Shown here one piece after another: positions 33,001 to 36,000 of a stretch of DNA of 64,000 nt. A program made the position numbers. Positions within the stretch are counted from its first letter, which is position 1. The number at the start of each line of letters is the position of its first letter. The stretch comes from Candidatus Omnitrophota bacterium (GTDB taxonomy: Bacteria; Omnitrophota; Omnitrophia; Omnitrophales; Aquincolibacteriaceae), in NCBI GenBank assembly GCA_023247055.1, contig JAHFHF010000008.1:733-64732 (forward strand). The letters are read 5' to 3'.

Positions 33001-36000
33001 ATACCGCAGGCATCATTCAAGCCGCGGGCGGCATCCAGATTTTCGGTCATGGTAAGGATATTGGCGTCAGGAACGACGTGTGCCGTGGAAATTTCAAGGC
33101 CGCTCGCCCAGACGCTGTCAAAGCCCGCCTGCTCGATCAGCTTAGCGCCCAGGCCGTGATGCGCGCCCATAACGCGTACGATTTTGCGGGTCTCTAAAAG
33201 ATTACGCAGGGCCGCCGCTTTATCACTCATTTGTGGTAATACTCTTTGTCATCTTGGACAATGCGCGCCGCATTGTCCGGACCCAGCAGGGAAAGTTCCT
33301 GACGCGTATCACTGCCGATGTTCTGGCCAAAGGTAATCGCCAGAATGCGCCCCAGGTTTTTAGGTTCCGGCGAATAAAAAGCATGCGGCACAAAGCCGGG
33401 GATCAGCCAGGAATCCCCTTCCGTAAAAATCTCCTCATGGACTTTGCCTCCAAACTCCCACAAATAGGCCACGGGTCCGCCGTGCAAAACCTGGGTGTAT
33501 TGGTGGAAAAAATGCCCGCGGTTCATGACAACGTCTTCGCGGCGGTGGAGGTGTAAAAGCAATTCGACCGGCTTGAAATTCGGCAGGGCCTGCGACATGC
33601 AGCGGTTCCAATAGGTGTATTGGGTCCGGCCGGCCCGGTCCTGGTCAAATTTACAGGCATCTTTGTGGCGCATGATTTTGATGCCGCGTTCCAGGTCATT
33701 GTCAAACGGCAGCAGGTCCCGCACGCTGACGTAAAAATATTTGGCCAGCAGTTCGAGTTCGCGCCACTCGGGCTTGGCTTCGCCTTTTTCAAGCGAGCGC
33801 AGGCGCGCTTCCGCAATTCCGGTCGTCTTGGCGACCATGGCAAAAGTATGCTTGACCTCATTGCGCCAGGCGTGGATCAGCCGGCCGTATTCGAGATAAG
33901 GCGTTTGCGCTGCGGTCGTATCACTCATGCGGTCCCTCCCCAAAGCTTGGTCAGATTCTCAAAATCCTGCAGCGTATCGATTTCGCGCCACCGCCCCGCC
34001 GTAGGCTGGCAGGTGACCGTAACGCCTTGATTGGTCAAATATTGTAGCATATCGGTGACATAGGCCTTTTCGAAAATGGGGGCCCGTTGAAAAGGCTTTC
34101 CGGAAAAAATGCTTTCAGCCTCCAGGTATTTTTTTCTGAACATCTCCGCGCCGGCCCGGCTGAATTTCATCATTCCAATGAATTCGCCGTGCAGAGGCCC
34201 TGACTGTCCTGAGATCTTGCCAATGCGCCGGACCTGCGGGGTGTCATCCATTTCAACCATCTCGGCCTCGGCCGGCGGATGATCCGTTCGCCCCTGATAA
34301 GCTTTCTGCCAGGCTGTATCCACCGCCAAAACAATGTCTTCCGGCGCCTGGAGCAAGTTGCGGGGCACGCTCGGCTCAAACCAGATGTCCGAATAAGACG
34401 CCAAGAGTTCATCGTCAAATTCAGCCGCGGCCTTCATAAGAGACCCTAAAATATTATTGCGCTCAAAATCATGGTTCCAGACATAACGGACGTCTTTGCG
34501 CGTAAATTTTTCACCCTGATAACCCCGGATCACCACGATCTCTGAGATACCGCAGCTGCGCAGGGCTTCAATCTGCCTATCAAAAAGCGTCGTCCCGCCT
34601 GAGCGGATGGCCATGCACTTCGGAAGGTCGCGGGTCATGGGACGAAGGCGCGTTCCCATACCCGCAGCAATAAGGATGGCTTTCATAGGACGTCTTTCCC
34701 GGCCGGCCATACTTCAGCCGGACCGGAATGAACTTATATTTTTTGGGCAACAAACATCCGGATGTCGAAAGGGTTCACGTAGAAGTTTGAATTTTGGCCG
34801 CTTTGGGGCTGAAAAAACTTTCGCAGGACGGCCGACAGGTTCCGGCTGTAGCAGCCAATGCGCCGTTTGAATAAATCCAGCGAAACATATTTGCCTTCAA
34901 ACTTGCTCATGACGACCCGGAATCCGCATTGCTTCAGCAGCTGCGTCATGCTTTTTCCAGAAAAAAAGAAAAGATGCTCTTCGTCTTTAAAACCCATCCA
35001 GCGTTCGCGGAAAAGCCAGTGCGTCAGACTATCCACATCCGGAGTTGCCAGCACAAGCCAGCCGCCGGGTTTCAGCAAACGGTAAATTTTTTCAAGATCA
35101 CGGCGGGGCTGACGCACGTGCTCGATCACGTCCCAAAGCGTCACAACATCAAAAAGTTTTTCTCCGGAAGGCTCAAAAGATTCTAACGGACCGCAATAAA
35201 CATCCGCGCCTGATTTGCGGGCGTAAGCCGCCGCGTAATCCGAAATTTCAATGCCTTTGACCTCCCAACCCCGCTCCCGCGCTACGGCAAGAAAAAAACC
35301 CGCCGCACAGCCAATATCCAAGACCCTTCCCGGCTTTGTTTGAAAACGGTCGATAGTCCGGAATCTTTTTTGAAAGGTCCGGCGGATATTTTCTTCATCC
35401 CGGATGTAATCATCATAGCCCGTGGCCACGGACTGGCGGCTGACAAAATAACTTTCGCTATAAAGTTTCTTAAGCGTTTCAAGGCTGGGCTGGGGAAAAC
35501 TAAAAATGAATCCGCAGTCTTTGCAGCGGTAGACTTTTTCGAGGTTGGGATAAAGCAGCTTCGCCTTGCCCGAGCCGCACAATTCGCAGCAAAGGCCGGT
35601 CCCGGCATCAAGACCTTCGTGTCCTGCTTTTTCAGATTTTTCTTTCATGCTTTCGAGGGTCATGAGTCATCCAATCCTGGGCTAGAAAAAATGATATTAA
35701 TCGATTAATTCAAAAATTTCAATCACATGTCCGTTGCGCTCACGACTGGCTAGATCCGTCCATAGAAAAGGCGCGCCCGTCAGCGGGACGGCAGACACCG
35801 GCCATTCTCTTGAATTATTTTTATAAGGACTGAACCGGGCAATCCGGCGGGCCTTCCGGCCGAGTTCGGCATAAAAATCCGGGTGTTGGTTCTTATTCAC
35901 TTTGGCAATGATGACGGTGCGAATTCCAAGGGCCCGGAGCGCATCCACGCTATAAGGAATCCGGGGCTGGGAAAACAAAAATCCGCCGGCCAAATCATCG

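Follow-up and report, generated by a model that had tools for sequence, protein, structure and literature searches.

Here we identified, in a 64,000-nucleotide stretch of DNA from a Candidatus Omnitrophota bacterium (assembly GCA_023247055.1, contig JAHFHF010000008.1, positions 733 to 64,732; hereafter the window), a gene (33227..33928, minus strand, ATG to TGA) for a 233-aa protein that lies beside pepM in an operon predicted to make 2-hydroxyethylphosphonate (2-HEP). Comparative evidence relates this protein, at half their length, to the iron enzymes that cleave 2-HEP, methylphosphonate synthase (MPnS) and hydroxyethylphosphonate dioxygenase (HEPD), and speaks against a transcriptional regulator. 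It is very probably an enzyme of the HppE/HEPD/MPnS superfamily acting on 2-HEP, and we consider it probable that it is a mononuclear non-heme Fe(II) oxygenase that cleaves the C1–C2 bond of 2-HEP to give a one-carbon phosphonate. We refer to it below as the oxygenase.

A phmmer search against all PDB chains returned MPnS (6B9S) as the best match at E=2.9e-38, a homology well beyond chance, with Streptomyces albus HEPD (SaHEPD, 6B9R) at E=2.6e-29 and the fosfomycin epoxidases at 1e-9 to 7e-7 (Psf4 9.6e-10, HppE 3.9e-7). Regulators of the XRE family were far weaker matches by fold and by sequence, the best true one reaching only E=0.04, and neither kind of search placed DNA-binding regulators among the closest relatives. 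PuuR- or XRE-cupin-type regulators, which the first-pass annotation had weighed as possible top homologs, are all at E≥0.04 against 2.9e-38 for MPnS. When 1.84 billion cluster representatives were scanned exhaustively with HMMER, the strong matches all belonged to the HppE/HEPD/MPnS superfamily. The 233-aa query aligns separately with each half of MPnS (70.6 and 62.3 bits), so it is equivalent to a single one of the two alpha/beta repeats in MPnS and HEPD.

The domain order is that of the superfamily, an N-terminal helical domain resembling a helix-turn-helix (HTH) followed by a cupin barrel. Pfam detects the former as HTH_31 (residues 13-69, E=5e-6, 27.1 bits against a cutoff of 27) and gives no cupin match, and NCBIfam returns nothing but weak repressor-type HTH matches far under their cutoffs. 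The AlphaFold2 (AF2) model has helices at residues 12-64 and a C-terminal beta-barrel that matches cupins in fold comparison. Both domains proposed in the first-pass annotation are therefore present, the cupin by its modeled barrel even though Pfam is silent. The alpha (HTH-like) domain, residues 1-75 (33704..33928, minus strand), holds the invariant K26 (codon 33851-33853), equivalent to MPnS K28, and the barrel, residues 88-200 (33329..33667, minus strand), holds R98, Y106 and N136, equivalent to MPnS R102, Y110 and N145.

That Pfam sees only HTH models, that public annotation reads "XRE family transcriptional regulator", and that the 2-HEP pathway could run without this gene would all suit an XRE-cupin transcription factor of the 1Y9Q or PuuR-like kind, possibly an enzyme-derived 2-HEP or Fe sensor, regulating the phosphonate operon. 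Bona fide MPnS and HEPD proteins, however, give equally weak HTH matches. The catalytic set is wholly invariant, including K26 in helix 1 of the supposed HTH, while the residues opening the would-be recognition helix vary. The gene also lies mid-operon and is translationally coupled at both ends. Together with the regulators' distance in the searches, this makes a regulatory protein very improbable.

Predicted iron ligands and product-determining positions

Residues were compared in an L-INS-i alignment of 193 single alpha/beta units, made up of the half-size proteins and the N- and C-halves of every superfamily representative. PDB fragments were rebuilt from the phmmer output, and the numbering reproduces published residue numbers. 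Conservation was counted over 121 members of the half-size family. At MPnS positions 28/102/110/145/148/152/162/184/190 the oxygenase has K R Y N H Q Y I H, and eight of these nine residues (K26, R98, Y106, N136, H139, Q143, I176 and H182) are invariant in 121/121 members. The C-halves of full-size proteins have lost the catalytic residues. In their N-halves the last four of these positions show one of two patterns, Q F I H (the MPnS signature) or Q Y G H (class II HEPD).

The facial triad of the superfamily, His-x3-(Gln/Glu)...His within the cupin, is represented by H139 (codon 33512..33514), Q143 (33500..33502) and H182 (33383..33385), all on the minus strand. These predicted Fe ligands align to MPnS H148, Q152 and H190. 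Among the stretches earlier put forward as metal-binding, GHFFHQ supplies H139 and Q143 and FVPHAF supplies H182, but KVHEE contains no ligand motif. Aligned with MPnS, SaHEPD and HppE, the triad is intact; its third ligand is Gln143, making it 2-His-1-Gln rather than the anticipated 2-His-1-Glu. By the same alignment, the phosphonate clamp of MPnS and HEPD (K26, R98, Y106 and N136) is intact in the oxygenase. The phosphonate-binding roles of the Lys in the alpha domain and of the Arg, Tyr and Asn follow the published HEPD and MPnS structures. The invariance of the ligands and of these four residues in 121 members, together with MPnS, HEPD and HppE as best PDB matches, supports the original proposal of an HppE/HEPD/MPnS-family enzyme.

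The likeness to HppE on which that proposal leaned holds for the module count, one alpha/beta module per chain as in HppE and Psf4 (1ZZ6, 5U55), but the oxygenase is far nearer to MPnS and HEPD. The HppE/Psf4 type matches at E=1e-9, lacks the R-x7-aromatic tail described below, and has Glu as third ligand, four residues past the first His. In our alignment Glu replaces Gln in this column of HppE-type sequences (Psf4, P0228, P0260), half-size ones included. HppE acts on 2-hydroxypropylphosphonate with H2O2 and without C–C cleavage.

A non-cleaving oxidation of this kind (HppE-like epoxidation, 1,2-phosphono migration on a 2-hydroxyalkylphosphonate, or hydroxylation), or action on the cytidine monophosphate (CMP) ester of 2-HEP, is improbable. 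The similarity to HppE is approximately 29 orders of magnitude weaker than that to MPnS, the third ligand is Gln, and the residues clasping free phosphonate in MPnS and HEPD are all invariant. The Fom3-type B12/radical-SAM methyltransferase of the HppE-type route to 2-hydroxypropylphosphonate was not found in the window operon, where Pfam scans detected a class I S-adenosylmethionine (SAM) methyltransferase only. What speaks for such reactions is the HppE-like single-module architecture, the uncharacterized Tyr/Ile marker pair discussed below, and the fusion of PepM to a cytidylyltransferase-like domain, an arrangement also seen in Fom1 of fosfomycin biosynthesis. Of the reactions raised by the first-pass annotation, a one-carbon phosphonate from free 2-HEP is the most probable, with epoxidation or action on CMP-2-HEP less likely given the Gln ligand, the intact clamp and the lack of a Fom3-type enzyme.

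Two further positions should determine the product. Y155 (codon 33464..33466, minus strand), equivalent to MPnS F162 and SaHEPD Y163, is in the HEPD-like state; the family has Tyr in 100 members, Phe in 20 and Cys in 1. I176 (codon 33401..33403, minus strand), equivalent to MPnS I184 and SaHEPD G184, is in the MPnS-like state. According to a passage of PMC11978286 that cites Born 2017, methylphosphonate synthesis needs the Gln plus adjacent Phe and Ile, and class II HEPD is diagnosed by Tyr-Gly (Tyr163-Gly184) with a 2-His-1-Gln triad (PMC8976061). The published mpnS rule is H148/Q152/F162/I-or-V184/H190 and the hepD rule is H148/A-or-Q152/I-or-Y162/E-or-G184/H190 (PMC9381506, Supplementary Table S2); PMC12619172 holds nothing on product-determining residues. 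With H, Q, Y, I and H, the oxygenase matches neither rule: its residue at 162 is that of HEPD, and its residue at 184 that of MPnS. Of the MPnS markers, the Gln ligand (Q143) and Ile/Val184 (I176) are present but Phe162 is replaced by Tyr155. The Tyr of the class II HEPD motif is there, but the 184 equivalent is always Ile and never Gly. The class I HEPD pattern, Glu at the 184 equivalent and no Gln at 152, is absent (Gln143, Ile176).

The pairwise phmmer register places Ala154 opposite MPnS F162. Tyr155 was taken instead, on three grounds: its place in the L-INS-i alignment of 193 units, the register of the V-[NA]-[FY]-x-[YFW] strand, and a spacing that is the same as in SaHEPD. Among full-size representatives, the hybrid Tyr162/Ile184 pair occurs only in P0259 (459 aa), which bears the IMG name "methylphosphonate synthase".

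Compared with known enzymes, the oxygenase shares with MPnS of Nitrosopumilus maritimus (6B9S/6B9T) the 2-His-1-Gln triad, Ile184 and the K/R/Y/N clamp. The MPnS gene likewise lies beside pepM/ppd/alcohol dehydrogenase, nucleotidyltransferase and glycan genes. MPnS differs in having Phe rather than Tyr at 162 and in its size, approximately 457 aa in two alpha/beta repeats of which the N-terminal one alone is catalytic, whereas the 233-aa oxygenase has one repeat with a C-half tail; identity is ~25-30%. Class II HEPD (S. albus SaHEPD, 6B9R; AlpG) has the same triad, Tyr163, substrate-binding residues and upstream 2-HEP, but Gly184 in place of Ile. SaHEPD is a two-repeat protein of 450 aa and is found in actinomycete antibiotic clusters, while the oxygenase belongs to a cell-surface glycan operon. 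Class I HEPD (PhpD of Streptomyces viridochromogenes, 3G7D) is also a two-repeat protein, lacks Gln at the 152 equivalent, and carries an acidic ligand, Glu176, where the oxygenase has Ile.

Given C–C cleavage, methylphosphonate is somewhat more likely as the product than hydroxymethylphosphonate. What favors methylphosphonate and CO2 is the invariant Ile176, which should hold the Gln ligand in place as the equivalent Ile does in MPnS. On this unproven reading, with Ile fixed beside it, the Gln would be unable to swing away as in HEPD and the Tyr hydroxyl would matter little, favoring MPnS-type chemistry. This hydroxyl appears weakly constrained, because Tyr and Phe have exchanged at position 155 in at least 7 (7-8) independent changes on the neighbor-joining (NJ) tree, in a clade otherwise so tight that 92/233 positions are ≥95% conserved. 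A half-size HEPD releasing hydroxymethylphosphonate and formate is still to be considered because the oxygenase and 100/121 relatives have at position 155 the Tyr of class II HEPD, and full-size enzymes couple this Tyr with HEPD chemistry. The repeated exchange argues against that outcome, as does the invariant Ile at 176, where class II HEPD has the Gly that accompanies its Tyr, and the full MPnS pair F/I is carried by 20/121 relatives. We regard the half-size HEPD as possible but doubtful.

A single-module family in uncultured bacteria

A word-indexed search returned 163 relatives of the oxygenase; among the 120 of them listed, length is 214-250 aa and identity at least 63%. Their public names are "hypothetical protein", "XRE family transcriptional regulator" (e.g., HTL46676.1) and "transcriptional regulator with XRE-family HTH domain". 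Judged by sequence, the half-size family is conserved and mis-annotated in uncultured bacteria. The superfamily had only 239 representatives in the HMMER scan, and the entire half-size clade falls into a single 50% cluster. Among species-representative genomes the family is confined to metagenome-assembled genomes (MAGs), namely Omnitrophota (4), Planctomycetia (3), Nitrospinia, bins labelled Actinomycetota and Gammaproteobacteria, and 2 unclassified; it is also present on Verrucomicrobiae and TARA ocean contigs. No description of this family, or of any single-module MPnS/HEPD-type enzyme, was found in the literature searched, which included Li & Horsman 2022, Lockwood 2022 and papers on Omnitrophota and pepM. 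The known elements are the fold, the chemistry and a single-module precedent (HppE). What is new is an HppE-like module count combined with an MPnS/HEPD active site, the hybrid Tyr/Ile pair, and a range, phylogenetic as well as ecological, beyond the known producers.

The nearest relative outside the family is P0121, a 447-aa two-repeat protein from a metagenomic cluster (41% identity, E=2e-82), while a typical 450-aa MPnS or HEPD has ~30% identity. P0121 shares with the oxygenase a "GG" insertion before the PV(A/T)x strand, Ile184 and a neighboring homologous nucleotidyltransferase, but it has two repeats with a degenerate C-half, and Val162. Its gene (loci L019/L020) lies between this nucleotidyltransferase and a phosphodiesterase/sulfatase-family gene, next to Wzy_C. 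Further single-module lineages are P0124, P0131, P0157 and P0225, all Phe/Ile, and the HppE-like P0228 and P0260. P0131 (L022), from an Omnitrophota MAG, represents a second, distant single-module lineage (242 aa, 38% identity) with the cluster order Glyphos_transf-like, PepM::nucleotidyltransferase, Ppd, nucleotidyltransferase, oxygenase. The half-size P0124 (L021) stands outside any phosphonate context, so the single-module form is not always linked to pepM.

In four proteins of approximately 450 aa (P0122, P0132, P0138 and P0145), the Gln ligand at 152 is replaced by Gly, Ala or Ser. "GHFQD" occurs in 3/4 and Ala184 in 4/4, and they fit neither MPnS nor either HEPD class. A PhpD-like label does not suit these four, as they have Ala and not Glu at 184.

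The C-terminal tail of the oxygenase carries the motif R222-x7-Y230-Y231 (33236..33265, minus strand). It is shared with full-size C-halves as R-x7-[W/Y]-[F/Y], mostly R-x7-W-F/Y (R 68/73, W 67/73), and absent from N-halves. By this comparison, one half-size chain combines the catalytic set of an N-half with the tail of a C-half. Because one chain bears features of both halves, the oxygenase is presumably a homo-oligomer in which every chain takes both roles, as in HppE, and two chains would then reproduce the two-repeat monomer of MPnS and HEPD.

On the NJ tree, the half-size clade is sister to the P0121 N-half (bootstrap 76), and the nearest neighbor of both P0121 halves is the half-size clade. 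A 99% split sides the clade with all C-halves and 10/12 single-module proteins (query counted), and not with the bulk of N-halves; the clade is nearer to the C-halves than >95% of N-halves are. Deep nodes are unsupported, with bootstraps of 3-17. The tree is compatible with a slowly evolving form like that before the duplication and, equally, with recombinational collapse of two repeats. With the N-half catalytic set and the C-half tail in one chain, the single-module form may represent the pre-duplication state of MPnS and HEPD.

Operon context and proposed chemistry

The open reading frame marked in the first-pass annotation (33227..33943, minus strand) was confirmed directly in the window, but its likelier product is the 233-aa protein and not the 238 aa then given. 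A TTG at 33943 is a possible start that would yield 238 aa and a 19-nt overlap with the upstream nucleotidyltransferase gene. The ATG at 33928 is more likely because it follows a Shine-Dalgarno sequence, GGGAGGG (33934..33940, minus strand, within the 3' end of the nucleotidyltransferase gene), with a 5-nt spacer, overlaps the upstream stop by 4 nt as ATGA, and coincides with the public gene call on the same contig, which is exactly this ATG-initiated product (P0001). At the other end, ATGA at 33227-33230 overlaps the TGA stop with the pepM ATG. Stops and starts thus overlap at both ends, so the gene is translationally coupled to both neighbors. The earlier claim of coupling stands, including the 4-nt overlap with pepM, with the upstream overlap corrected from 19 nt to 4 nt.

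All neighboring operon genes are likewise on the minus strand. The upstream neighbor (33925..34710) is a LicC-like nucleotidyltransferase with a canonical GxGTR loop, assigned by Pfam/NCBIfam, PDB search and synteny, and is the most constant neighbor of the family. Downstream lies phosphoenolpyruvate mutase (PepM; 31545..33230), with an EDKx5NS motif (TIGR02320, 329 bits, above cutoff) and a fused C-terminal LicC-like nucleotidyltransferase. It is followed by phosphonopyruvate decarboxylase (Ppd; 30330..31433; TIGR03297, 364 bits, above cutoff) and an Fe-dependent alcohol dehydrogenase (Fe-ADH; 29203..30327), whose best NCBIfam match is TIGR03405 Phn_Fe-ADH, below the equivalog cutoff, and which is probably the phosphonoacetaldehyde reductase making 2-HEP. 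The stand-alone and PepM-fused nucleotidyltransferases are paralogs with 30% identity. For both, the best match is LicC, a CTP:phosphocholine cytidylyltransferase; the PntC-type enzyme 6PD1 is a further match of the stand-alone one. The fused domain (31545-32360, minus strand) has a non-canonical glycine loop, AAGDARKHADF, compared with the canonical AAGMGTRLRPMT of its paralog, and may have a different substrate or altered catalysis.

Upstream in the same operon, Pfam identifies a block (34734..38107) of a SAM methyltransferase (34734-35663), an ArnT/PMT-like GT-C glycosyltransferase (35697-37397) and a family 2 glycosyltransferase (GT2; 37394-38107). Several sugar-nucleotide enzymes and LptD are also upstream in the window, placing the operon among lipopolysaccharide and glycan synthesis genes. 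From these glycan genes, the phosphonate is probably destined for a cell-envelope glycan. Just upstream of the LptD/glycan block, a pair of neighboring genes (48763-51617, minus strand) encodes GGDEF diguanylate cyclases, one of which also has a GAF domain. Approximately 2 kb past the Fe-ADH gene, a TylF-like O-methyltransferase gene and a 2-oxoglutarate (2OG)-Fe(II) oxygenase gene overlap by 4 nt (25228-27017, plus strand); the latter encodes a second O2-dependent enzyme near the cluster.

Synteny was counted over 13 distinct family contexts after merging duplicate contigs. The LicC-like nucleotidyltransferase is immediately 5' of the oxygenase in 13/13, and PepM fused to a second LicC-like domain is 3' of it in 10/13, with Ppd and/or Fe-ADH coming after where the contig is long enough. 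In the marine/Nitrospinia variant and one Planctomycetia variant, PepM is not adjacent and Fe-ADH is retained. This constant linkage to Fe-ADH supports 2-HEP as the substrate.

The marine subclade (TARA contigs L002/L003, 8868-9719; Nitrospinia MAG L016, 8779-9630) carries the complete MPnS pair, Phe155/Ile176. Here the nucleotidyltransferase and oxygenase genes are followed by one for a conserved 283-aa protein that matched nothing in Pfam or the PDB, then by Fe-ADH and a CDP-alcohol phosphatidyltransferase, the last being adjacent in L016 and on the opposite strand approximately 2 kb downstream in the TARA contigs. No pepM was found within 8 kb of these loci, and a questin-oxidase-like gene is also present in the Nitrospinia MAG. 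A phosphatidyltransferase at this place is a hint of a phosphonolipid instead of a glycan. On two groundwater contigs (L006/L007, 6863-8014), the nucleotidyltransferase 5' of the oxygenase is 383 aa long and has an extra N-terminal XRE-type HTH. This HTH was rejected as evidence for a second subunit, as its match to the oxygenase alpha domain is only generic (15 bits).

For the reaction itself, we carry over by inference the chemistry established for HEPD and MPnS. PepM, Ppd and Fe-ADH would produce 2-HEP. Fe(II) would be held by H139, Q143 and H182 and the phosphonate of 2-HEP by K26, R98, Y106 and N136, with 2-HEP ligating Fe(II) via its hydroxyl and one phosphonate oxygen. With O2 an Fe(III)-superoxo species would then form and remove H from C2, and scission of C1–C2 would give formate and a methylphosphonate radical. 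This radical would either take H from formate, yielding methylphosphonate and CO2, or rebound with Fe-OH, yielding hydroxymethylphosphonate and formate. Finally, we also infer that the coupled LicC-like nucleotidyltransferase would convert the product to a CMP-phosphonate ester for decorating the cell-envelope glycan.

Several points weigh against this scheme. Tyr155 is the HEPD-type state, and the published rule makes no product call. The inter-domain linker of the AF2 model is of low confidence, with a predicted local distance difference test (pLDDT) score of <50 at residues 67-77. Because glycans can also be decorated with 2-HEP as such, an oxygenase step is not strictly required. A CMP-phosphonate transferase was not identified in the window operon. 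By analogy with Fom1, the PepM-fused nucleotidyltransferase could make CMP-2-HEP, which would present the oxygenase with a nucleotide-bound substrate. The proposed reaction requires O2, whereas Omnitrophota often live in low-oxygen habitats.

Possible sources of methylphosphonate

Methylphosphonate is the accepted precursor of methane formed in oxygenated water. To our knowledge, the two-repeat MPnS is the only known methylphosphonate biosynthetic enzyme. The authors of a groundwater study detected MPnS in just 3 samples and raised the question of the origin of the methylphosphonate there (PMC11978286). The half-size family is found in 2-HEP operons of several uncultured phyla, in groundwater and ocean, and may be an overlooked source.

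That the half-size proteins are genuine methylphosphonate synthases is a prospect that we place slightly short of an even chance. Uncultured Omnitrophota, Planctomycetia and Verrucomicrobiae from groundwater and sediments, together with marine Nitrospinia, would in that case be producers of methylphosphonate esters that have gone unrecognized. They would supply substrate for aerobic methane formation driven by C-P lyase where canonical MPnS is rare, and more taxa and habitats would be able to feed this process. The half-size proteins would have been missed, or left unclassified, by surveys relying on annotation of full-length MPnS/HEPD and on the published residue rule. If hydroxymethylphosphonate is made instead, the family would still be a new architectural class of HEPD. 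In either case, one tight clade naturally offers both Tyr/Ile and Phe/Ile variants, which bear on the choice between H-atom transfer and hydroxyl rebound, and the single-module form bears on the evolution of the two-repeat enzymes.

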